A stretch of DNA of 63,045 bases, the filler included, from Reclinomonas americana ATCC 50394 (lineage: Eukaryota): NCBI GenBank assembly GCA_048213135.1. It is 17 parts of 17 records of this genome, joined end to end, with 100 filler letters (N's around TTAATTAATTAA, not from the genome) between each part and the next. Parts side by side here need not be neighbours in the genome. Positions count along the whole stretch, not along the records: positions 60,746 to 63,045 come from AFZH01022526.1; 16 more parts are not named here. One strand, 5' to 3'. The notes under the pieces are model-generated. The model made no database searches. It saw only the letters and a list, made by a program, of their open reading frames with translations, and was not told where the DNA came from. A program made the position numbers and the translations under genes. How positions within the stretch are numbered: position 1 is the stretch's first letter; each line of letters opens with the position of its first letter. This document shows, piece after piece, positions 9,710 through 63,045 of this stretch.

Positions 9710-12700
9710 ATGCGCTTGCAGGTGCTCGCCACAGAGACACAACGTTGCGTTTGTGTGTGTGTGTGTGTGTGTGGCACTCACTCCCTATATGTGTGTGCTC
9801 CTCTGTGTGTCTGTGCGCGCGCGTGAATGTGAGAGGCAGAGCGTTTGTGTGCGTGGCAGTTGTTTCTTGCTCTCCTGTGCACCCGCTTGTGCCTCCTCGC
9901 TCGTGTCTGTGCATGGAAGTTCGTGTTCCTGCTTGTGTGCGTGTGTGCGCGTGTGTGTCGTTCTCCATTGGCCCTTTGTGATCGGGCGGTTGACTTCATT
10001 CGCGCGCGCACTTGCTCACTCGCTGCCTTCGTTCACAGACCGCGATGTGGTGACATCAGTGGGCTGGTCGGTTGCCGGTGAGCTGCTCACATGTGGCGAC
10101 GACCAAGCGATCTACGTGTGGAGCAAGAATGGAGAGAACGTGCAGGTAATGTGTCCGGTCGCTGGTGACAAGTTGACACACGCACGCATGCACTCACCAA
10201 CGACAACGACGATGATGGGGGTGTGGTTGCTGGTGAGCAGAAAGTGTGCGACTTTGACCGCCATGTGACGGCGCTGGACTGGTATCCGGCAGTGTCGCGC
10301 AAGCAAGGCGGCAATCCAGACGCATTCGCCGTGTCGTGTGCAGACGGTTCGCTTCACCTCTCTCGCTCACACATGCACGAGCCTGACTAAGGGGTGGGAC
10401 TTGTCCGATCCAGGCGCCTTTTGTTTGATGTCGCGCTCGGGGCGTGTGGAAAAAGTGGTGGACGGCGCGCATCGTGGTGCTGTCACGGCGCTCAAGTGGA
10501 ACTACGAAGGCACCGCCCTGGTGACGGCCGGCGAGGACGGCAGCATCAAGGTGTGGTCGCGGAGCGGTGCGCCGCGCTCGACCTTGTCTTCGGCTGGTGA
10601 GTCGTTGTCGTCGACTTGTTCCTTTCCCTCCCCCCCTCTCTCTCTCTCTCTCTACAAGTGCTGACTCGCCCCGTCTNNNNNNNNNNNNNNNNNNNNNNNN
10701 NNNNNNNNNNNNNNNNNNNNTTAATTAATTAANNNNNNNNNNNNNNNNNNNNNNNNNNNNNNNNNNNNNNNNNNNNATCAAGGTGTGGTCGCGGAGCGGT
10801 GCGCCGCGCTCGACCTTGTCTTCGGCTGGTGAGTCGTTGTCGTCGACTTGTTCCTTTCCCTCCCCCCTCCCTCTCTCTCTCTCTCTACAAGTGCTGACTG
10901 CCCCGTCTCTTTCACCATACCAGGTCTCTGTGTGTACAGCATTGCGTGGGCACCCGACAGCGACCACGTGTTGTACACGTCGGGCAAGGACCTGATCATC
11001 AAGCCGCAGCAGCCGTCGTCGAAGCACCTGCAGTGGAAGGCCCATGATGCCACCATTCTGCGCGTCGACTGGAACATTGTGAACAACCGCATTGTCTCTG
11101 CCGGCGAAGACGGTCGCTACAAGGTGATTTTTCGACGCACGCCGCCACACCTCGTCTCCTCGCCTCCCACTCACTCGACTTAACAGGTGTGGGACTCGTA
11201 TGGACGGCCACTGTTTTCCAGCGCACCGTTCGAGTACGCCATCACTTCGGTCAAGTGGTCGCCCGACGGCGAGCTGTTTGCCGTCGGTGCCTTCAACCTC
11301 ATTCGTCTGTGTGACAAGGCCGGGGTTCGTCTTTTCACACACGAGTGTATGTCTCTCTCTTTCCCTCCCTCCGCACCCCTTCGCTCACTCGCCGGCGCTC
11401 CTGCAGTGGTCGTGCTCACGTGAGAGTGTCGAGGCGGGCTCGATATTTGATCTGAGCTGGACTCCCGACTCCACAATGCTGGCGGGCGGCGGCGGCGGTG
11501 GCCAGGTGGTGTTTGCGCAGGTGGTGGATCGACGGCTGGAGTGGAAGAACTATGTGGTCACCCTGCAGGATTCCAACAAACTCTTTGTGCAAGATGTGCT
11601 GAATGAGTTGGTCGAGGACTTGGAGTTCCGCGATCGCATCATTAAGATCTCGTTCGACTTTGGGTACCTGGTGGTGGCCACCAGCACCCAAGTGCTCGTC
11701 TACAGCTCCGACAATTGGCACACGCCGCACATTCTCGACGTGAAGGACTCGGTGACACTGTTGCTGCAAGCAGAGAGGTGTGTGTGCCGACTGTGCATGT
11801 TGTGGTGCTGGCTGGTTGAGAGTGACTGACTTGTTTGTTGTTGCTCGTGCTGCAGAAAATTCCTGATTGTCGACAACATCACCGGCGTGCAGATCTTCTC
11901 GTACGACATGCGACCAGTGTGCAAGGTGGGCTTTTCGGGTCTGCGACCCGACTTCCTCAACGCCCAGTCCATGTCGCTGTCGAACGACGCGGTCGCCATC
12001 ATTGATCGCGCCGAGCCACGCACGGTGCGCATCCTCAGTTCGGTGACAGGCAAACCACTTGGTGGCACCAATGGCGGCACCATCACGCACACCAACGAGG
12101 TGGTGGAGGTGGCGTTGGACTATCACGGCTCGCTCAACAGCCGCAAGGTGGTGTTTATCGATTCAAATCGCGATCTGTACCTGACCAGCGTGGAGGACGT
12201 GCGCGTCATCAAGCTGGCCACCATGGTTGCGTTCCACTCGTTCTCTCTCTATCTCTCTATCTCTCTCTTAAGCACGGCACGTGCAGGTGGATTCGGTGAG
12301 GTGGAACGATCAGACAGACATGCTGGTGGCTCTGGCCGACGGCAAGCTGGTCACGTGGTACTACCCGCAAGTCATCAACATTGACAAGGATTTGCTGTTG
12401 CAGACGCGCTTCGCCAAGGACGCCAGGTGAGCGCTTTTTGTCAAGAGCACATGACTTGCACCCCCAGCAACTCACTCACTCTTTGTCTCGCCCTTTGCGC
12501 GTCGCAGCGAATTTGGCAAGAACGCAACTCTTTTGAGCTTTGTGGGCTCCCGGTGCATGATTCGGCGAGCGGATGGCGCCATGATGGCCGCCGGCGTCTC
12601 ACCGTACCCCTTGATGCTCTACAAGTATGTGGAGCGCAACGAGTGGGAGAACTCGATCCGCTTGTGCCGCTTCGTCAAGGACAACACACTGTGGGCGTGT

Positions 12701-13219
12701 TTGGCCGCCATGGCACTGGAGGCAGTCGACCTGAACACGGCCGAGGTGGCGCTGGCCGCCATTGAGGAGGTCGACAAGTTGCAATTCATTCTCAAGGTCA
12801 AGGACATTCCGTCGGCCGAGGGCCGCAATGCCGAGTTGCTGATGTACCGTCGACGAGTGGACGAGGCCGAGCAGTTGCTCGTGCAGGCCGGCCTCACGTA
12901 CAGGGCCGTCAAGATGCGCATCCGCATGTTCCAGTGGGATCGGTTCGTTTTTATGCTCTTCTCCTCTCTTCTCTGCCTCTCAGTGGCTCACTCGCTTTCG
13001 TTTAAAAGTGCCCTGGACCTCGCTGTCAAGTACCGCGTGCACACCGACACCGTGTTGGCGTACCGACAGCGGCATCTTCTCTCGACACATCGCCACGAAT
13101 CGAATGCTCGCTTCCTGAAGCTGGCCGAGGAGGTGGGCGAGATCAACTGGGAGCAAATCAAGCTCAAGATCAATGCCGACAAGCAAAAGGAGCGGGATCG
13201 AGGGTCACGGGCACACTAA
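9710..13219 (+). CDS. IFT80: Intraflagellar transport protein 80 (WD40), about 11 exons, spans a gap
   Basis: [21 protein letters not shown]...[22 protein letters not shown]...[10 protein letters not shown]...LEFRDRIIK...RLCRFVK...[20 protein letters not shown]. Colinear with IFT80 throughout; all introns GT-AG. Confidence 0.97.
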
Positions 13220-15452: not shown

Positions 15453-18400
15453 TCATCGGAACATCTCCCCGCGCTTGATGCGCCAGTACATGTCCTGTGC
15501 GTTGGACTCCAGCTCGGCCAGCTGTCGTACAGAGGGTCGCAGTGACTCGACCAGCGCAGCCATGCGGTGCGACGCCTCGCTCGACTCGCGCGACTTGCCG
15601 TACACCACTGCGCGGACACACAACACAAAACGTGAGCGTCGCAAGCAACCAACACATGCGCATCGAAAACCGACCTCCACTTCCACTGGGGCCACTGCCA
15701 CCGCCGGCCAAGAAATCGTCCAGAGTGGGGATGGAGGCCTGAATTCGTGTCTCAATGGCCGCCAGCAGCTCCGGTTCGTCGTACCAGATGGCGCAGCCAC
15801 CTTGCGGCACGAGACGCGTGTTGGTGCACCCTCGGCCGCGACTGGCGCACGTGTGGTACCACACTTTCTCCTTCTCGGTGCCGACCAGGGAGACGGCCAT
15901 ACCCATTGCCTCGGCACGACCCACACGACCCACACGATGCACGTAATCCTCCGGTTTGTCGGGGAGCGTCATGTCTGTCGGTCGCCGACGTATTGAGTCT
16001 CACGCACCAGTATGTTGCACGGCAATGCGCATTGCACGCAACTAATGACATACGGCAACTCCTGCACGTCAATACCACGTGCCGCCACGTCGGTACAGAT
16101 CAAAATTCTCACGTCGCTGTCCTTGAACGCCTGTGTGTGTCGTGGCATCATCAGTGACGTGCGCGCTCTCTCATTCTCTCTCTGACACAAGAGGGCGCCG
16201 CAACTGCCAGATTCTGTCGTCTCTCCTGTGCATTGCGATCGCCGTGCAGCACCACACACGAGTAGATGTTCTCCTTGCCCTTTTCGGCCTTGCCCTTGAC
16301 TGCGATGCACGTCCGTGTCAGTCGCACACGCATACATCAATACACACACTTGGTGAATGGGACGCAACACTTGGTGCCACCACCGCGCTTCACCAAATAA
16401 TCCTCCAGGTTGTCGCAGTCGACCTTGGTACGGCAAAAGATCATCACCTGGTCCATGTTGAATCTGTCCAGCAACTCGACAATCTTCTTCATCTTCAGCT
16501 TCTTGATCGCCTCGCTCAACGCCTCCGGTGTCATGAGGCCCGGTCGCACGCCGTCTACAGAGCACGACCGTGTTTTCAGCGGCGGTAGGGAGCAGAGGGT
16601 TGACACAGAAACACATACGCACCAGCAATGTGAATGCGGTCAGTGGGCGCATCGCCCCACTGCGTGTCGCCCTTCGGGTCAATGACCACTTTTGTGTGAT
16701 GTACAGTCTGCTCACGGAGACCACGGTGAGCGAGTTCAGTGGTGGAACAACAACGAAACGCACGTGTCACTCACATCCGGCACCGAGTCCTTGCCCTTCA
16801 GATCGACCCAGATCGGATTGACAGTGATCTTTTCGGCAAACTCAATAATCTCCGGCGAGTGCAGCGTAGCCGAGAAGAGCAGAACCTGTTCACACGTGTG
16901 CCTGTCAGTCGTTTCCTCCCTGCGTGCGACGGCAAAAATGCACTGTCATTGTTCACCTGCAGGCGGCGAGCAACCTTGGGAATGGCCCGATAGAACTTCA
17001 TGATTTCCTCCACGCTCTCGGGGCTGATGAGACGATCGGCCTCGTCCAGGATGAAGAACTGCACGCCCGACAGGTCCAGCTTGCCGCTGTCGAGCAGATC
17101 CACCAGCTTGCCCGGCGATCCAATGAGAATATCGCAGCCTCTGTTTTGCAGTTCCTGCACCCACACATTCGTGAGTAGCAGCAGTCGTGCATGTCATCAC
17201 GAGAAGGTGCGCTGGACGAAACTCGACCCAGTTGCGCGGTTTCCACACCACCAACAGCCAGCGTGTGGCTGATGGACGGGTGCGAGAGGTGAACCTTGAA
17301 TTTCTCAATCTCCTGCGAGACCTGCTCGGCAAGCTCGCGAGTCGGCTCAATAATCAGCACACTCGGCGTGCGCCTGCGTGTGTCACACACACAAACGTCA
17401 CAGAGTGAGGACAGAAGTGGACAGGGAATGACGAGGCGATCACTCAAAACGCACACGCCGCCCTTCTGCGAGCCACCGGCGGCTTCCACGGCCAGATTCG
17501 TGTGCGACTTTTGCGCCTGGTTGATGAAACGGTAGCCGCGCGGCACGGGGAAGTCGCTGCGCGCAGCTCCAAAGTTGAAGTACACCTCCGAGTTCTGCAA
17601 GTCGCGTTGAGTGACACACACATAGACAGCCTCACAAGCAAACCCCACCTTCAACGTGCAGGCCGGGTAGAACACGGCATTCCTCAGTCCCTCTGGAATC
17701 TCGAATGCCACACCCAAGTCCTTGCCTGCAGATGCAATATGAGGAAGAAGAGGAGAGCAGTACAGCAGAGTGGCATGCCAAGCAGTGCACACCGTTCTTG
17801 GTGAACGAGATGGTGAACTCGTCGTGCAAGTCGATGCACACGCCGAGCACATCTCCCATGCCAAACTTCTCTCCATAGTCCTCGAACTGACCGCCGTGAG
17901 ACTTTTTGCCGGTGCCGCCAAAGCCAAAGCTCTGCAACGATGGGTGGTCAAACAATGAACCTGCAACTTCCTGCACACAAAATCACATGTGTACAGCAAA
18001 CCTGTCGGTCGGTGCCAATAGTAAAGCCGGCCGCCGATGTGGCCCAGCCGACACGCGAGAGACCCTCATCGGAGAAGCGAGCCTCGTAAAAGTACTTGCC
18101 TGCACGACAAACAACAATCAGTCTCCTCACCTCCAATCATCACCAATCTCGTTGTGGCACTGAGGACCTCGCATCACTCCAATGATGGCTCGACCGCCAC
18201 CCCACGAGCGCTCCGCTCGCGCCTGGCACCGGATGCCGTCGGTGACAAAGTCTCGATCGTGATCGCTCTGGCTCATCTCATCCGGAATATCGACTGCGAT
18301 GTGTGTAAGCAGCCCTGCTTCCGTGGCAAGGACGACGCACGCTACACCACGCAACTCGGTCCGCTGTCACTGGCACTGGCCACAGCACGTCGTGACGCCG

Positions 18401-20506: not shown

Positions 20507-23500
20507 CTATTTGGTCCACGCGCTGCTGCATTCGGTCTCGACAATGAGTGGCACCTCAAAGTTCACGCCGTCGACAGCGCCCTCCATGAGGCGCTTGATG
20601 ATGGGCGTGACCTCGTCGAGCTCCTCGTCGGGGACCTCGAACACCAGTTCGTCGTGCACCTGCAACAGCATGCGCGTTCGCAATCTCGGTCGCTGCGACT
20701 CGAGCATGGCGTGCACACGGTTCATCGCAATCTTGGTGATGTCGGCCGACGAGCCCTGAATGGGGGTGTTGATGGCGGCGCGCTCGGCAAATGAGCGAAT
20801 GGCTGGGGTTTGCGAATGAATCTGCGGAATGTGGCATCGTCGTCCAAACTGCGTCACGAGTGCGTTAGCACGTGCGTGTAAGGAAGGAGGCATGCCGGTA
20901 CGGAGTACTCACTAGCGTCTCCANNNNNNNNNNNNNNNNNNNNNNNNNNNNNNNNNNNNNNNNNNNNTTAATTAATTAANNNNNNNNNNNNNNNNNNNNN
21001 NNNNNNNNNNNNNNNNNNNNNNNAAGTGTATCGCGCGCGCAGTACAACCTTCGGTACGAGCCGGAATGTTTTGCAAGTTGGGATCGACCGAGCTCAGTCG
21101 CCCTGCGACGACGCAACTCAGTGCATGCACTTCGCGCATCAGCAGCTGACACACTCGCTTACCAGTGTTGGTGAGTGCATTCTGGAACGTCGTATGAATG
21201 CGCCCAGTGGTGGGGTCGATGCGCACAGAGAGGCCCTTGACGTATGTCGAGTGCAGTTTGGAGAGGCGACGGTGTTCCAGCACCAGTGTCGCCAACTTGT
21301 GACCTGCAACGAATAAAGTATGAGTGTTGACAATCACCGCGGCTTTTTGGCAAATGAACGGCACACGAATACCCTTAGCCTTGAGCTTCTCGAGTACCTC
21401 CGAGTCGGTCTGCCACGTGCCACCGGGCAGGCGCTTGGCAAGGCGGTTGTCGACCTTTTCCACCTGCACGTCAAAAATGATTTCACCGAGCTGTTTTGGC
21501 GAGTTGATCTTGAATTCGCGACCGGCCGCGGCGTAGATGCTCTTGGTCACAATGTCCAATCGGGCGTTGAGATCGGCACCCAGCTTGTCCAGTGCATTCG
21601 AGTCCACCAGCACACCGGTCAGCTCCATGCACTTGAGTGTTTCCACCAACGGCAACTCAATGTCGCTGTAGAATCGCGACCGCGTTGCGTCTTCCACCAT
21701 GCGTGTGGCCAGCAGTTGGTACAAACTGCGCGCACAACTCTGTCAGTACACGGCCCGCCTTCACTCTCGAGACAGGCGTGCTCACCGCAAGTTGTAAAAT
21801 GCACGTTCGCACACAAAACGCGTGGCAATGTCCAGCTCCACGTCCGCAAACGGCATCATTTTGCGCCCGCTGCCCACCATCTGTCACACCTTTGTCAGCA
21901 ACAAGGCAATGCCTTGCTCTGTGAACAGACAAACCTCGCCCTCGGGAGTCACGTCGTGCACGTCGAGCAACTTCTCCACCAGCAGCTGGAGATCGTGTCG
22001 GTGCTTGCCGCAGTCCAGACAGTACGACATGACCATGGTATCATCGTAGGGTTGCACTGCAACACAAAGGCACGCATTCTCAATCGCCCAGTCACATAGT
22101 CACGAATATGTGTGCGCAGCCACCAACCATCCACATTGTAATTGTACAGCGCCTCCAGCTGCTCCTTCATGTCGTGCCCGACCTTGTGAATGGTTGGATC
22201 GGTGAGCACGCGTCGCACGGCATTCCACAGGCGAGTGCCCATATCGCCGGCAGTAGAGTCGGCAGAGGCCGGGTAGGCCGACGGTGACAGATGTGGCACG
22301 TAGCACGCATCGCCGCGGATACTGCACAAGGCCACACCAGCTGCGCGAGAAGGTGAGACGATCCGCACAGACAGAGGCGCGCGCACACACACACACACTC
22401 GCACACACACCCAGCGTCTGTTCGTGCTCGTTGGGGTGCGAGACTTGCGCGTGGATGCTAATCACCTGCGTTCGATAGTGGAGTGAGAAGCAGCAGCGAA
22501 ACCACTCACACACAAGTCAACCTTCGCCCCAGAAAACGCAACACCACCCGGAGCTGCATGCTCTGCAACCCACTCCTCAAAGGCCTCGACGGTACGAATC
22601 GACCGGTAGCGTGCGTTGCCAAACACCGCAGGCACCTCGGCCCACATGGGCAGTGCCATTAGTCGCTGGAAGCGACCGTGCACGCTGTCGTCGGGCTCTG
22701 CTTCCAGTCACGAACACGATCAGAAAGAGACTGTCTAAGATGAAGAGATTGTGCGTGTGTGCGCGCACGACGCAACCGCGATGCTCGGAACGAGACAGCA
22801 CGTGGCCCGTGGTCCCATCGAATCCAATCTTGTCGGCGTCGACGGCTGAGGCCGCAGATGCCAACTGCTGCTGTTGCAGCTGTTGTTGTTGTTGCTGCGT
22901 GAGGAACCATTCGAGCTGATATCGACGGCACACTTGCTCCGCCTGCGCAACACTACACAGTGAGTTGTGCTGCACTGTGCAACGAAGCAACGCGGTCGAC
23001 TGGCGATAAGGGACCTGATCGCCGGGTGTCCACGCCGGCCACGCAAACGACTGCAAGTCAGGGAACATGTGCGGATCGATCGCGTACTCGCCAACACAGC
23101 GCGACAGGTGTGCTGCATGGCTGCGAATGCTGCAATCCCACCAAGACAAATCAGTCGACCAGTCAGTCAGCGAGTTCGCGACCACCTGCCTCCGACGCAA
23201 CAGTTCTCGTGTTTTCCGACTTGCAATGTTTTGCCGCCCAGCCAGCACCGCCTCCATCGATGGGAACTGCTGGAGCAACTCAGCGGCGGCTTTTTTCGAC
23301 AGGCCGAGCACTCCGCGGCCATCTGCAACAGCACGTCAGCGCATACCTTCACTAGAAAGCGCGACAGTGACGAACTTGTCGATCCGTCGCCGGTCAGGCA
23401 AAGCATGTCGCGCACCAACGACGGAGGGACCAGCATCTCGGCCTTCACAGCGGCCTCATCTACGCGCATTGAGATGGTGTGAGGGAGACGCGTTCCGCTG

Positions 23501-32446: not shown

Positions 32447-32546
32447 NNNNNNNNNNNNNNNNNNNNNNNNNNNNNNNNNNNNNNNNNNNNTTAATTAATT
32501 AANNNNNNNNNNNNNNNNNNNNNNNNNNNNNNNNNNNNNNNNNNNN

Positions 32547-33177
32547 GCCAGCCGCCCGACAAATGCTCACCAACTCGCGCTGCTCCTCGTGCGACATGAC
32601 ATACCCGGTGGGGTTATGCGGGCAATTGACGACCACCAATCGCGGAGGAGGATCACTGGCCGCCACCACCTCGCGCAACTGCTGCAAGTCCAATCGCCAC
32701 TCAGGCGCACGCGTCTCCCACCGCGTGACTTGCGCCCCACATGCCTCCGCCACCGCGGTCAGCGACTGGTAGCACGGCCAGTGCACCACGACGCGATCGC
32801 CCGGCGCAATGCACGCTCGCACAAAGGCATAGATGGCCTCCTGCGCGCCCACGTGCACCAGCAGGTGCTGCTCGGGGTCGATGGTGGTGTAGAGTGTGCG
32901 GGCAATGGTGTCGCGGAGGTGTGGATCGCCGGTGGATTCGGCGTAGCCGAGGCGGAGGTCGAGGAAGCGGTCGAGGGTGGAGGAGGAGGAGGTGGGAGAA
33001 GAGGTGGGGGTGAGGGAGAGGAGGTCGCGGATGGAGGTGCTTTCGGCGTCGGAGCAGCAGAGGAGGAGCGGGGTGGTGAATTCGTAGCGGGCGAAGAAGC
33101 TGGGTGGTTGTGAGTAAGCGAGAGGAGGGAGGGAGGGATGAGGAGGAGGCGAACCGTTCGAGTTTGAAGGGCTCCAT
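32547..33177 (-). CDS. PLP-dependent aminotransferase class I/II (capreomycidine synthase/AspAT-like), 3' end lost in gap
   Basis: MEPFKLER|FFARYEF...CSDAES...LGYAESTGDPHLRDTIA...GAQEAIY...WPCYQSL...VVNCPHNPTG; one intron. Confidence 0.9.
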
Positions 33178-33469
33178 GATCGACGACTGATTGGTGTCGG
33201 TGCAATCAGCGCGGGCGGACATCGAAGTGACAGTGATCGCCAGCAAGAAAACTCGTGTGGTATTCTTATGCACTGGGTTGTTGGTGTTGAGAATAAAGAC
33301 CCCTTTCCAAGTTGCATAAACTCTGCCGGCGACGTCGACTTTACAGGCTTAGCAGGGTGGTGTCGATGAGTGGCCAGAGGTCAAAAAAGGGTCAAGGGTC
33401 AAGGGTTGAGGGCACAGAGCCCACAGCCTTACCGCTGGGTGTGAGATACCGAGGCCAACAGGCCACAAT

Positions 33470-44428: not shown

Positions 44429-45561
44429 NNNNNNNNNNNNNNNNNNNNNNNNNNNNNNNNNNNNNNNNNNNNTTAATTAATTAANNNNNNNNNNNNNNNN
44501 NNNNNNNNNNNNNNNNNNNNNNNNNNNNGAGAGAGAGAGAGAGAGACTGCAAGGGGAAAGAGACCGGAGAGACAGCGCGGGGAATGCATGCATAATTGAT
44601 GGAGTTGTCTTTGCATTCTTGCTGTTGTTGGTGTTGATCTTGCTGTTCTCCTCTTCCATTCTTCTTCGCTCCCTCGCTGTTGTTATTGTTGTTCTTCTTC
44701 ATCTGTTCTTGTTCTTCTTCCTCTTCACCTTCTCCTCTTCCTGCTCATCCTCCCTCCTCGTCCTCATCCTTCTTCTTCGTTTCATTGTCGTCGTTCTTGT
44801 TGTTTCACTGGCCTCCTCTTCCTCTTTTCTTCTCTTTGTTCTGCTTATTCTTCGTCCCCTCGTTGCTGTTCTTCTTCATCTTCGCTCTGTTTTTCTTCTT
44901 CTTCTCTTCTTCCTGTCTGTGTTTCCCTCCTCCGCTTTTGCAAATCGCTATTGTTGTTGTTGTTGTTGTTATTGTTGTCGTCGTCTTTTCTTCCACGTCA
45001 TCTCATTCTGCTTCTTGTTCTTCTTCTTCTTCTCCTTCCCCGTCGTCTCCATCATCATCATCATCGTCTTCTTGTCGTCCCCTCTCCTCCTGCTCCTCCT
45101 CCTTGTTCTTTTGACACTCTCTGCCACTCCTCCTCTCTCTCCTCTTAGTTCTCCTCTCTCACTGTCCATTTCCTCCTCCTTCTTCTTCTGCTGCTGCTCC
45201 TTCTGCTTCTGCTTGCTTCTTCTTTCATTTCTCTGCTTGTCGTCCCCTCTCCTTCTCCTCTCCTCTCTTTTGTTTTCCTTGTTCTGCAGACACTCTGACA
45301 CCTTCCTCCTCTCTCTATCTCTTCTCTTCTTTCTCCCCTCTCCTCTCCTCGTTCTCCTTCTTCTTCTGCCGTTTCTGCTTCTGCTATGATTTCTTCATTT
45401 TCTGCTTGCCTTCCCTCTCCTTCTCCTCTCCACTCTTCTGTCTTCCTTATTCTTCGGAAACTCTCTTCTCCACTCTCCTCTTCTTTCTCCCTCTCTCGCC
45501 TTCTCCTGTCCACCTCCCTCTCCCACACCTTGCCCCTCTCACCCCCCTTCCCCTATCTAAG

Positions 45562-46603
45562 GTCATTGTCCACCTCGCGGCACACACCAACACCAAGACC
45601 GCCGAGGAAGACCCCGACCGCTGCATGCTGGCCAACGAGGCTGGCACTCGCAACCTCGTGCAGTGCCTCGACAGTCACACCAAGTTTCGCGCCTCTCAGT
45701 CTCTCCCTCGCCTCTTCTTTCTCCCCTCTCCATGTCCATCTCCTTCTTCTTCTTTGCTTCTCCTCCTCCTCCTCCTCCTCCTCCTCTTTTCCTCTACTTT
45801 CTCCCTCTCGCCTTCTCCTGTCCACCTCCTTCACCTCCTTTTCCCTCTCTCACCCCACATCAGGTTCATCCTGTTCTCCACCGACTGGGTGTACCGCGGT
45901 GAGGCCTCGCGTGAGGAGCCGTACTTGGAGACGGATGCCACCGAGGCGGAGACTGTGTACGGGCGCTCAAAAGTGGCCGCCGAGCGAGTAGTGCTGGAGG
46001 CGGCGGCGGAGCGAGGCTTCCCGTATGTGATTCTGCGCAGTGCGCTCATCTTTGGTCCACCGGCGGTGTACAGCGGGCAGACGAGTTTCTTTGAGTGGTT
46101 CAACGTGGCGCTGGCCAACGGCAAGACCGTGCAACTGTTCATCGACGAGATCCGCAGTCCGGTGTATGTGCGCGACATTGCGGGCATTGTGATCGCACTG
46201 CTGCACGACGATGCGCACTGGAACCAGGTGTACAACATGGGATATCCTTGCTTGCACGTTGTCTTCTTCGTGTTCTCGTCGTTTACGTTGCGCACTTCCT
46301 TGACTGCGTGAGAGAAATCGCACAGGGCGGGATCTGATCTCGCGTTTTGAATTTGGTCGCCGGCTGGCACTCTCGCGTGGCTACAATTTGGATCTGCTGG
46401 TGCCATCCAAGGCCAGCGATGGTACGTTGCCGCGTGCTGTGCTCCTCCCCCTGGTGGTGGCGAATCATTCACACGCGCACTGCGCAGTATTCAAGGACGG
46501 CAATCGACCGTCCAAACTGGGCATGAATATCGACAAGCTGCTGGCTATCTATCCCAATCTGCGCACCGTGGACGAGGCTCTCGCCGACATGGACGCCAAG
46601 TGA
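45562..46603 (+). CDS. RmlD/MAT2B-like extended SDR (dTDP-4-dehydrorhamnose reductase family), 5' end not seen
   Basis: VIVHLAA..., FSTDWVYRG, catalytic YGRSK, LFIDEIRSPVYVRDIA, YNMGGRDLISRFEFG. Confidence 0.9.
46242..46323 (+). other. U12-type AT-AC intron (82 nt)
   Basis: 5' ATATCCTTG, branch site TTCCTTGAC (46296-46304), 3' AC. Removal restores in-frame YNMG-GRDLISR. Confidence 0.9.
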
Positions 46604-51246: not shown

Positions 51247-52308
51247 TCAAAAGGAAGCCTCCAAGAAGAGGAGCCGATAGTGAATGCTCTCTGCATCCTC
51301 CACCAAGAAGCAGCGCAGGACAATCTCCACAAGGCAGCGGTCGATCGCACCCTGCATATCCTGCACGGCAAGCATGGCCGAGCGAGCACAGTCGAGCTCC
51401 TGGCGAGCGTCGCCGCACGGCGTGGACCACACCCGCACCGTCCTATCATAGCTGCCACTCGCAATAAACTCACCATGGGGAGCGACGGCGACAGACCGCA
51501 GCCACGCAGAGTGACCTTCCAATAGTCGCACCTGCTGGCCGCTAGACAGCGACCACACGCGCACCGTCATGTCCGAACCGCCACTGATCACATGCCGTCC
51601 ACTGGGAGAGACGGCAATACCATTCACCGTTCTCGTATGTCCCTCCAGTCGCCTCACCTCCTTTCCACTCGCCAGCGACCAAACTCGCACGGTATTGTCG
51701 TAGCTGCCACTCACGACGAGCTCGCCATCGGGTGTGACAGCGACGGAAGACACCGTATCTGCATGTCCCTCCAGCCGTCGCACTTCTTCGCCACTCGCCA
51801 GCGACCACACGCGCACCGTGTTATCACGACTTCCGCTCACAGCATGTTGGCCGTCGGGAGTGACAGCGACGCTCTCAACACCGCGAGTGTGACCCTGCAG
51901 CCGTCGCACCTGCTCACCACTCGCCAGCAACCACACGCGCACCGTGCTGTCGCCAGCTCCGCTCACAACGTGCTCTCCGTCGGGAGTAAGGACGACTGAG
52001 TGCACAGAGTACTCATGTCCAAGGAGACGTCGCACCTCCAGTCCGCTCGCCAGTGACCACACTCGAATCGTTCTGTCATAACTCCCGCTCACCACGTGCT
52101 GACCATCGCGAGTGACAGCGACAGACCACACGCCTCCTGTGTGGCCCTCCAGGCGCTGCACTTCCTGTCCACTTGCCACACACCACACACAGATGGTGTG
52201 ATCCTCGCTGCCGCTCAGAATGTGCTGACCGCTGGGAGAGACAGTGACAGTCAGCACGAATGAGGTATGCCCGTGCAGGCACTTGTTGAAAAGAGGGGTG
52301 GAGGCCAT
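51247..52308 (-). CDS. Intronless WD40 protein with 7 highly similar 42-aa repeats and a short helical C-terminus
   Basis: Repeats of LxGHxxxVxSVAVTPDGxHVVSGSxDxTVRVWSLASGxEVRR; ATG at 52308. Confidence 0.92.
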   Translation of the reverse strand: MASTPLFNKCLHGHTSFVLTVTVSPSGQHILSGSEDHTICVWCVASGQEVQRLEGHTGGVWSVAVTRDGQHVVSGSYDRTIRVWSLASGLEVRRLLGHEYSVHSVVLTPDGEHVVSGAGDSTVRVWLLASGEQVRRLQGHTRGVESVAVTPDGQHAVSGSRDNTVRVWSLASGEEVRRLEGHADTVSSVAVTPDGELVVSGSYDNTVRVWSLASGKEVRRLEGHTRTVNGIAVSPSGRHVISGGSDMTVRVWSLSSGQQVRLLEGHSAWLRSVAVAPHGEFIASGSYDRTVRVWSTPCGDARQELDCARSAMLAVQDMQGAIDRCLVEIVLRCFLVEDAESIHYRLLFLEASF

Positions 52309-52740
52309 GCGCGTGAGAAAGTAGACGGATGAATTATGACGCAGGTCGCGGGACCGCGAAGTCAACATGCAACATGCAGCCTCGCCTTTCGCAGGCCAGC
52401 CCGCGAAGTGAACATCGAAAGAACTGCTGCTGAATGCAAACGAAATAGCAGGATGCATGCGGACTTGTTTTGCTTTCGATTTCCCTTGGCTCTGCTGGCC
52501 TTCTCGAGCCGCTGTTCAGCTTGCGAATTCGGACCACCTGATCTTTTCGGTGCGCGCGAGCGAGAGGGACCACATGCGCAGTAAATCCATGCCGCTGTCG
52601 CTAAGTCACGTGCTGACTGGTCTTGGCTCATGGTTCCTTCCCGTTTCTGGCAATAACAGTGCCACATTTCATTCCTCTTCTCCTCTCCCCTCCGTAAACC
52701 TCCCCCCTTCTCCCCTTCTCCCCTTCCACCCTCTACCCCA

Positions 52741-60320: not shown

Positions 60321-60755
60321 TCAACCGGGTGTACCGGCCGTGGTCACCGACTGCAACATGGCCTGCACGCGTTCGTACTCGCCCCGTGCCGACTGGTACT
60401 TTAGCTCGACCTGCACGAGACGCGTCTTGCGGTCCTCCCACATGCGCCCAATCTCCCGCCCTCGCTGCTCCACCCGTCGCCTCTCGTTGCGCAGCCGCAC
60501 AATCTCCCGCTCCACAAAGTCCCTCGGTTCCCGCGGCTTCGGTGGGATGAACATGGCCGCACCGGGCGACACCGGCGGCATGTTTGGCGTGGTGGGCATC
60601 GGCTGCGACCCTTGTTGCTGTTGCTGCTGCTGATCCATCATCATTNNNNNNNNNNNNNNNNNNNNNNNNNNNNNNNNNNNNNNNNNNNNTTAATTAATTA
60701 ANNNNNNNNNNNNNNNNNNNNNNNNNNNNNNNNNNNNNNNNNNNNCACTGCAACA

Positions 60756-60792
<37 letters not shown>

Positions 60793-61252
60793 TGTGTGTG
60801 TGTGTGTGCGTGTGTGTGTATGTGTGAGAGAGAGAGACAGTGTGTGTGTGTTTGTCAGAAAGGGCGTTCGCCTTGTCTCACTCACATGCACAACTGCATG
60901 CATGCATTCTCATTGCAATGCATACTCTCTCTCTCTCTTCTCTGCGTGTGCGTTTGTGTGCGTTTGTGTGCACCATCACCGAAATGCGCGCCCTTTCTCT
61001 CGCACTCTTTCCCTTTATCTCTTTACCTTGTGGTGGCGGCGGTGGTGGCGGCTGCCCATAGTCACCACGTCGCGCAGAGGACGACGACGACGACGACGAG
61101 GAAGACGACGAACCCACGCCCGACGTCGACGTCGACGAAGCTCCTGCGCCGCCTCCTTGTTGTTGCGGAGGCGGTGGTGGTGGTGGTGGTGGCGACCAGC
61201 GCGACGACCGCGGCGGCGGCGGCTGCCCTCGCCCTCGGTATCGATCGCTCAT
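60321..61252 (-). CDS. Hypothetical protein: Pro/Ser-rich first exon (ATG 61252) and coiled-coil last exon, probably one gene across the gap
   Basis: MSDRYRGRGQPPPP... ending at a GTAAAG donor; terminal exon FVEREIVRLRNERRRVEQ...TPG*. Confidence 0.55.
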
Positions 61253-61321: not shown

Positions 61322-62857
61322 ATGGACGAGAAAGCAGTGTCGTTTTCGACTCCGGGCGACGCGCCTCTTCGCGCGCGCGGACACGCGAGCAGCAGCAGCA
61401 ACGGCGCCTCCTCTGCCGCACTGCTGGGCGATGCAGGCGACGATGCAGCAGCAGCAGCAGCTCCCTCCACCACTGTCGAATATGAGTGCCCAGTGGGCGA
61501 TGCAGCGCGCAGAGTTACTCCCCAAGCGTGTGAGTCATCGTCCAAATGAGTGTGTGCTCACTCGCTCCGTACAGGTTCCGTTGATTGATGACGATCGCGT
61601 GGCGCTGTTGACTCGATTTGGATCCAGCTTTGCGGTGCTGCGTCTTGCCGCCGTTCATCACAAAGCGAAGGACGCCGACGACGATGACGATGCGTGTTTG
61701 GTGATGATTCACGTGTCGCCGGCATTTGCGAGGAACACCGGCTATCATGCGTCGGAGCTGCTCGGGAAGCCGGTGGCGTTCCTCGGGCATCAGAGGTCAG
61801 TGATTGGTCTGACCATTCGCACGCCGGAGTCGGAGTTCCATTACGGGCGATGTTTACATAACGATGTGCATTGTGTAGTGAGCACTGTGAGGGCGATGTG
61901 CGGAATGAGATCAATGCGCAGGCGCGACGGGATATGATGCGCAATGTGCACTCGGGCGATGAGTTCTCGGTGCGATTTCTGCATTTCCATCGGAATGGCA
62001 CCGAGTTCTGGAACCTCCTGCACTTCTTCCCGCTGGAGGGCATCGAGAGCGGCCATGTGCAGGATAGTCTGCAGCATGTGTTGCCGAAGTATTTCATGGC
62101 CGTGCAGTGTGGTGAGTATAGGAGAGACAAGGAGGAGTCGTTCGGAGCGCTGATCGTGTGCGGATAGATGTGACGCGCATGGAGGACTCGTCGGAGGACC
62201 ACTCGGAGGTGGAGCCTCGGCATGCCATGGCCGCATCTGCGGTGCCTCTGCTCTCCAAAGCCGACGAGTTGCGTCCCTCGCAAGGGAGCGAGAGATGGGA
62301 GCAGGGAGAGAGACATATTTGTGTGTGTCTACGGAGTCTCACTGGGCTGGACATCTGAATCTCGGGCACAGTGACGAGGAGGATCGGAACACGCGCGGCA
62401 TCTCCTTCCGCCACAACACCGTCAGTCTCGACTTTTACAACCTGTCGTACCACGTCGAAAGCAGTGGAGTGGGATCGTCGCAGAACGTGCGTCGCCAGAT
62501 TCTCGACAACATTGAGGGTTTTGCCCGTCCCGGCCAGTTGTTGGCTGTTGCGTTCATGACGGACGGGCTTGTCGGGGGGAGTGCTCCGCGCGTCTCCGAT
62601 CGCCGATGCTCATTCATGACGCGTTTTGTGTAGCTCATGGGTCCGTCGGGAAGCGGCAAGACGGTACGCACGTGCGAGGAGGAGGAGAGCGAGGGAGTGA
62701 GAATCGGCGATGCTAAATGACTTGTCGCCTCCCCGTGCAGACTCTTCTCTCCATTCTCGGCAGTCGCATCTCGCACAATGTCACCGGCACCATTCTCTTC
62801 AACGATGGGCCGCCCACCAAGCAGACCAAGCGCACAACCGGCTACGTGCTGCAAGAA
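61322..62857 (+). CDS. PAS (LOV-like) domain fused to an ABCG transporter nucleotide-binding domain; continues past the window end
   Basis: PAS: VSPAFARNTGYHASELLGKPVAFL...FHRNGTEFWNLLHFFPL...YFMAVQC|DVT. ABCG: LDFYNLSYHV...RQILDNIEGFARPGQLLA|LMGPSGSGKT|TLLSILG...TKRTTGYVLQE. Confidence 0.85.
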
Positions 62858-63045
62858 GTTGCGTGAAGCATCACATCACAAGTTTCTACTTCTCATTCGC
62901 CCTGTTCCTCTCTCTTCCTCGTTTCTTCTTCCGCCTGTTCCTCCCGCATGCTTCTTCTCCCTCTCCTTCCCCTTCCCCTTCTCCTTCTCCTTCTTCTTCC
63001 CTTCCCTTCCCCTTCCCCTTCTCCTTCTCCTTCTCCTTCTCCTTC

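Follow-up and report, generated by a model that had tools for sequence, protein, structure and literature searches.

A predicted intron-rich gene places a degenerate LOV-type PAS domain ahead of an ABCG-type nucleotide-binding domain

We analyzed a window of 63 045 nt (the whole stretch of DNA under study, filler included) and focused on a gene model on the plus strand close to its right end (Table 1). Splicing by coordinates gives an open frame from 61431 to 62857 that comprises seven exons and 975 nt and reads through 325 codons with no stop, which agrees with the claim of the initial annotation that a single stop-free spliced frame leads from a LOV-type PAS domain into an ABCG-like nucleotide-binding domain (NBD). 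In the encoded protein, a PAS domain contributed by two exons is followed by an acidic linker and then by the beginning of an ABC NBD (Walker A to Q-loop). All six introns inside the model are of the GT..AG type, with lengths of 45, 83, 56, 104, 87 and 77 nt. Because four of the six lengths are not multiples of three, the open frame requires the splicing of four introns; the length of intron 5 is a multiple of three, yet this intron ends with an in-frame stop as its last codon. The protein junctions AVQC/DVTRMED and KAD/DDEEDRNTRG were reproduced in the spliced frame, as was the previously given intron at 62268-62371. The junction between the PAS domain and the linker, formerly placed at 62110-62168, was right on one side only: the linker does start at 62168, but exon 3 ends at 62111 and the intron covers 62112-62167. 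The window contains the 5' part of the gene, as the sequence ends in the intron that follows the Q-loop exon. On the left side the gene is bounded by N runs around the linker TTAATTAATTAA, which has stops in all six frames. Positions 60627-60745 are an artificial scaffold join, and for this reason a linkage of the PAS-ABC gene to the left-hand sequence is not established. An ORF on the minus strand (60321-60689) with a Gln-rich N-terminus runs into this gap and would be a divergent neighbor if the join were real. Long (CT)n and (GT)n microsatellites are located upstream of the PAS-ABC gene at 60760-60860, and an imperfect CT-rich repeat (62930-63045) occupies the intron at the window end.

Table 1. 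Features of the analyzed window; positions count along the whole stretch
Feature	Position	Strand	Basis or remark
ORF, exon-sized, Helicase_C	15972-16766	-	Pfam match
ORF, exon-sized, family-A DNA polymerase	20975-21742	-	Pfam match
ORF, exon-sized, class I/II aminotransferase	32502-33380	-	Pfam match
ORF, exon-sized, RmlD/NAD-dependent epimerase	45115-46308	+	Pfam match
ORF, exon-sized, seven-repeat WD40 propeller	51250-52515	-	Pfam match
N runs around the linker	60627-60745		Direct reading; gene on 2.3-kb piece to the right
First coding stretch, probable	61431-61529	+	ATG 61431, Gln-rich, same frame as PAS exon; codon-position GC
Intron 1, 45 nt, GTGAGT..CAG	61530-61574	+	In frame; reading frame kept whether spliced or retained
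Exon 2, N-terminal PAS half (A-beta to E-alpha), GKPVAFLG for GRNCRFLQ	61575-61795	+	PAS_9, PDB
Intron 2, 83 nt, GTCAGT..TAG	61796-61878	+	LOV alignment continuous across junction
Exon 3, C-terminal PAS half (F-alpha, G/H/I-beta)	61879-62111	+	PAS_9, PDB 1n9l, whole-library search
Intron 3, 56 nt, GTGAGT..TAG	62112-62167	+	If retained, stop as last codon (TAG 62165-62167)
Linker exon (exon 4), end of LOV I-beta (DVT), then acidic stretch	62168-62267	+	LOV profile, codon-position GC
Intron 4, 104 nt, donor GTTGCGT	62268-62371	+	Heptamer enriched in window; IFT80 donor precedent
Exon 5, NBD start up to ..PGQLLA	62372-62546	+	Weak Cdr1 match; codon-position GC
Intron 5, 87 nt, donor GTTGCGT	62547-62633	+	Frame stops at its last codon
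Exon 6, ten codons, Walker A (GPSGSGKT)	62634-62663	+	Direct sequence reading
Intron 6, 77 nt, GTACGC..CAG	62664-62740	+	Spliced model
Exon 7, NBD after Walker A to Q-loop (..GYVLQE)	62741-62857	+	PDB matches to ABCG25
Start of next intron, donor GTTGCGT, CT-rich, to window end	62858-63045	+	Unspliced, frame stops at TGA 62864-62866

The beginning of the gene had originally been set to ATG 61322, which is probably wrong. The own frame of this ATG stops at 61547, and an exhaustive listing of introns that could connect it to the PAS frame returned 255 GT/GC..AG combinations, all of them with weak donors. The strong GTGAGT donor at 61530 is in frame for the PAS frame only. Regarding the GC content at the three codon positions, the PAS frame from ATG 61431 has values of 0.67/0.42/0.76, compared to 0.71/0.67/0.59 for the frame of ATG 61322, and the pattern of the stretch 61431-61529 resembles that of the known exons of the window. 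Because codon-position GC favors the PAS frame and ATG 61322 can reach this frame through weak donors only, translation probably starts at ATG 61431 or at a later ATG. The choice of the start is without effect on the fusion.

For the PAS part, the unspliced exon pieces were scanned separately against Pfam, in which the family PAS_9 (PF13426) has a gathering score of 27 bits. Exon 2 matched positions 13-39 of PAS_9 (18.6 bits, E 0.0023) and exon 3 matched positions 44-89 (17.0 bits, E 0.0074). Either piece alone is below the gathering score; the two matches are collinear and their simple sum is 35.6 bits. In the PDB, exon 3 matched the LOV1 domain of Chlamydomonas phototropin (1n9l, E 4.2e-4), and among the 60 PDB chains listed for this exon nearly all were named LOV photoreceptors or LOV-derived constructs, with phototropin, miniSOG, envoy and aureochrome as top matches. 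The PDB matches of exon 2 were weak (best E 0.047) and were all LOV/PAS sensors. When exon 3 was compared to 1.84 billion representatives, we observed eight matches at E <= 0.001, the best of them with 45 bits, E 1.1e-6 and 36% identity. All eight are LOV-bearing proteins with PAS_9; two of them additionally contain Pkinase (phototropin-like) and one contains RhoGEF and RGS, and an ABC domain was present in none of the eight. On these scores the PAS/LOV likeness is greater than chance, and the domain is to be placed in the LOV branch of the PAS fold, without a close relative in the library. The LOV-type PAS domain of the initial annotation is thereby borne out. Both PAS exons find their closest sequence relatives among phototropin-type LOV domains such as 1n9l, which show the same fold elements. 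The window domain keeps their FWN and I-beta Gln (the Gln of VQ), both encoded in exon 3, as well as the DVT end, but has inserts in the A-B, E-F and H-I loops, the H-I insert in exon 3 being nine residues long. A further difference concerns the output, which is an ABC ATPase in the window protein and a kinase in phototropin.

The flavin site of the domain is strongly altered. GKPVAFLG aligns with GRNCRFLQ, with Cys replaced by Val, Asn by Pro, Arg by Ala and Gln by Gly, and the LOV signature GXNCRFLQ with its adduct-forming Cys is absent from the window domain. In the alignment of 13 related LOV domains we found 22 near-invariant columns, 15 of which are kept in the window domain and seven of which differ; the latter include N to P, R to A, Q to G/E and N to H, the last change being located in the LNY strand (G-beta). 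Kept are FWN, the Gln of the last strand, the Arg of F-alpha and, within the motif, G, F and L. Both earlier observations on this site, namely the replacement of GxNCRFLQ by GKPVAFLG without the Cys and the retention of FWN and the signaling (I-beta) Gln, were confirmed by the alignment. Since the Cys is replaced, a canonical blue-light adduct photocycle is unlikely.

Cys-less LOV domains that bind flavin have been described under the name LOV*. For a LOV* domain, the passage on sequence analysis in Yee et al. (PMC4682037) demands that, the Cys aside, no fewer than 9 of 10 conserved residues are present; G59, N61, R63, F64, L65, Q66, N94, N104 and Q123 (YtvA numbering) are named among them. 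Mapping from our alignments shows that the window domain keeps five of these nine (G, F, L, N104 and Q123) and that N61, R63, Q66 and N94 are replaced by Pro, Ala, Gly and His. These four residues we take to be polar flavin contacts in LOV structures. Because five of nine named residues are kept and at least nine of ten are asked for, the window domain falls outside LOV* as defined there. With LOV* proteins such as halobacterial BAT (PMC4682037) it has in common that a LOV-like domain without the adduct Cys is part of a multidomain protein; the difference lies in the number of conserved residues retained. By sequence criteria the domain is neither LOV nor LOV*, flavin binding itself appears doubtful, and most likely the domain has ceased to function as a photoreceptor for blue light through flavin. 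We also considered that it could be a working Cys-less flavin sensor, which would bind FMN, FAD or riboflavin, form a semiquinone by photo- or chemical reduction and gate the ABCG part by light or redox through a relay over the I-beta Gln. The residues kept as listed above would fit such a sensor, its closest relatives are true photoreceptor LOV domains, and signaling of Cys-less LOV proteins proceeds via the neutral semiquinone, with about 70 natural LOV-like entries in GenBank that lack the Cys (PMC4682037). However, with the loss of N61, R63, Q66 and N94 and a count of conserved residues this far below the LOV* definition, we regard a flavin sensor of this kind as quite unlikely. Still less credence is given to the wider proposal that the LOV-derived domain holds a chromophore, be it a non-canonical flavin or another ligand, and switches an ABCG pump by light or redox; if true, this would be a natural single-chain light- or redox-gated primary active transporter. 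Of the regulation by ligand, redox or light that had been suggested for the protein, light is the least likely option, as the Asn, Arg and Gln of the motif and the LNY Asn are replaced in addition to the Cys.

Downstream of the linker, direct reading of exon 6 gives GPSGSGKT, a Walker A motif of the kind expected for the P-loop of an ABC ATPase. For the 39 residues of exon 7 all four PDB matches were to Arabidopsis ABCG25 (E 2.2e-4), with the stretch from behind Walker A to the Q-loop aligned to chain residues 110-147. For the 58 residues of exon 5 the PDB yielded a single match, to the PDR/ABCG protein Cdr1, which is not significant (E 1), and for these two short pieces, exon 5 and exon 7, no Pfam family was found. 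Half-size ABCG (WBC) proteins such as ABCG25 share with the window protein that the NBD comes first and that Walker A reads GPSGSGKT. The NBD-first order and the PDB matches, which cover 39 and 58 residues, suggest an ABCG half-transporter. The window covers roughly the first 100 NBD residues; Walker B, the signature motif (LSGGQ), the D- and H-loops and the membrane domain, presumably a six-helix one of the ABC2 type, would follow beyond it. From the earlier assignment as an ABCG transporter, the ABCG-like start of the NBD is upheld by the ABCG25 matches (four of four), while the transporter itself is extrapolated from these approximately 100 residues. The window protein differs from known ABCG proteins by the PAS domain and linker, together about 230 residues, in front of the NBD; to our knowledge, no more than a short unstructured N-terminus occupies this place in known ABCG proteins.

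Several lines of evidence bear on the question whether the PAS and the ABC parts belong to one gene. Three predicted exon ends (62268, 62547 and 62858) coincide exactly with the heptamer GTTGCGT. In the whole window it occurs 36 times compared to 12.4 expected occurrences (about 3-fold), and none of 100 shuffles reached 36. In the IFT80 gene of the same window, the tblastn alignment to a homologue breaks at 12228, where an intron of about 60 nt led by GTTGCGT begins (donor 12226). Because GTTGCGT leads this homology-defined intron, the organism genuinely uses it as a donor. Within the gene model, two of the three GTTGCGT sites are located inside the NBD, with junctions fixed by homology (..LLA/LMGPSGSGKT..), and the third one joins the linker exon to the NBD. 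The codon-position GC of exons 2-7 is 0.63/0.40/0.74, similar to 0.60/0.40/0.77 of the reference IFT80 exon; exon 5 has 0.59/0.40/0.76 and the linker exon, which is coding-like from its first codon, 0.72/0.47/0.81. The spliced protein aligns with P0001 (phototropin-like, LOV2, residues 216-312) with 58 bits, and this alignment spans the exon 2/3 and exon 3/4 junctions, with ..VQCDVTRMED in the window protein opposite ..VQVDITSMEE. Splice donors, codon-position GC and LOV homology across the junctions support the gene model as credible at the sequence level.

An objection to a fusion comes from intron 3. If this intron is retained, the frame runs into the stop that forms its last codon, and an in-frame ATG (62179) is located 12 nt downstream of this stop, so the locus could instead make a PAS-only protein ending at TAG 62165-62167 and a separate ABCG protein from ATG 62179 or from another promoter, the fusion being unreal or minor. 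By the profile of the 13 LOV domains the retained form (44.0 bits) is not inferior to the spliced form (42.6 bits), and the two are not separated, as the local alignment ends before the last strand. When the last 11 nodes of the profile were scored without gaps, we obtained 13.4 bits for the spliced form and 6.7 bits for the form with intron 3 retained, and in the last three nodes DVT contributes +4.9 bits compared to -1.8 bits for the read-through. DVT, which precedes ATG 62179, extends the I-beta strand of the LOV domain, and the coding-like pattern of the linker exon likewise begins ahead of this ATG, at the first codon. Furthermore, intron 3 has the consensus donor GTGAGT, 12 bases are too few for a terminator and a promoter, and a GTTGCGT donor, the organism's own type, connects the linker exon to the NBD. 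ATG 62295, an alternative start in the frame of exon 5, opens an ORF with a codon-position GC of 0.54/0.54/0.50, which is not coding-like. Separate products are for these reasons considered unlikely. A PAS-less ABCG isoform, which would count against the fused form, could arise from the in-frame ATG 62179 in the linker exon.

We looked for relatives with the same design. An orthologue with PAS-ABC architecture was found neither in the word-indexed protein search nor among the 1.84 billion representatives nor in the metagenomes. The word-indexed search returned three candidates for exon 3 and 18 for exon 5, none of which reached a score, and the metagenome scans gave 248 pattern matches for exon 3 and 598 for exon 2, none of which was confirmed. 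Within the window, a search for further LOV or ABC exons matched only the exons of the gene itself. The best library homologues of the IFT80 exon of the window are 52-55% identical and spread over unrelated eukaryotes. Because even for IFT80 the identity stays in this range, the organism and its kin are absent from the protein libraries, and the absence of orthologues is weak evidence since the lineage is unsampled there. The locus could also be read as a gene copy that is truncated or in decay, or as an ABC ATPase lacking a membrane domain; the degenerate LOV motif and the contig break would then mark a relic. The lost flavin-site residues and the missing orthologues in the libraries and metagenomes searched would agree with this, as would the position of the gene on a 2.3-kb piece between the assembly gap and the window end. 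However, a frame of 325 codons over seven exons with no frame break, a strong coding GC pattern in every exon tested and intact splice signals speak against it, and in the PDB search the NBD fragment resembled membrane ABCG proteins and not the soluble ABCE/ABCF type. We regard a relic as very unlikely.

In the literature searched, we found no description of a PAS- or LOV-ABCG protein apart from one phrase in a 2025 preprint; neither PMC4649718 nor PMC13257379 has a PAS passage of relevance. There, in the excerpt available, a 'LOV-ABC transporter' is listed among algal modular LOV proteins with conserved Cys and NCRFLQ, and neither subfamily nor experiments are given in that excerpt (10.1101/2025.06.20.660589). 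In the algal entry as in the window protein, a single protein predicted by bioinformatics only unites an ABC transporter with a LOV-type domain. They differ in the NCRFLQ motif, which is conserved with its Cys in the algal proteins and altered in the window domain, and the comparison refers to the listed name. The initial annotation did not recognize the architecture as described; no PAS/LOV-ABCG paper was found in the literature searched, and this view needs to be qualified by the preprint entry. A LOV-derived PAS domain ahead of an ABCG-type ATPase seems to be an unusual and uncharacterized design.

Slightly better than even in our judgment are the chances of a real fusion in which a LOV-derived and probably flavin-free PAS domain regulates or dimerizes an ABCG half-transporter. 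One gene of an intron-rich, flagellated eukaryote would then encode a LOV-derived PAS domain of about 140 residues, an acidic linker of about 45 residues and an ABCG-type NBD. The PAS domain would have descended from a phototropin-type LOV domain, minus the adduct Cys and four other flavin-site residues, and may act as a cytosolic regulatory or dimerization module. ABCG half-transporters function as dimers. With one PAS domain attached to each NBD, the two PAS domains could form a pair, or the PAS domain could dock on the NBD, and this pairing or docking might set how easily the ATPase domains close. The trigger sensed by the PAS domain might be a ligand or a partner protein. The open spliced frame, the homology to PAS/LOV domains, the lost residues and the ABCG-like beginning of the NBD are observed, while the membrane domain, a regulatory role of the PAS domain and expression as a fusion are inferred. 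A working analogy is given by the KCNH channels (EAG/hERG), whose N-terminal PAS ('eag') domain carries no cofactor and regulates a membrane transport protein by docking on its cytosolic domain. The likeness is one of function, and the eag domain sits on an ion channel while the PAS domain of the window would sit on an ATPase.

ABCG transporters export lipids, hormones and drugs, and as far as we know they are regulated by expression, trafficking or phosphorylation and not through a sensor domain of their own. With a folded PAS domain attached to its NBD, the protein would be a natural example of an ABCG pump under direct allosteric or dimerization control, and also of a LOV domain that was recruited to a new output and then lost its photochemistry. 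If light or redox were still sensed, the protein could serve as a template for controllable transporters. More generally, the locus suggests that an unsampled eukaryotic lineage holds domain combinations that are missing from the current protein libraries.

Apart from the PAS-ABC gene and the exon-sized ORFs of Table 1, the window contains the IFT80 gene (intraflagellar transport) with several exons at 10044-13216 on the plus strand; from the presence of IFT80 it follows that the organism makes cilia or flagella. GTTGCGT is an unusual donor consensus and may help to place the organism. Two tblastn pieces of IFT80 on the plus strand, 10413-10586 and 10777-10818, align to identical homologue residues (124-137), and the same 30 bases come after each of them; this resembles a locally duplicated exon end or an artefact of the assembly.
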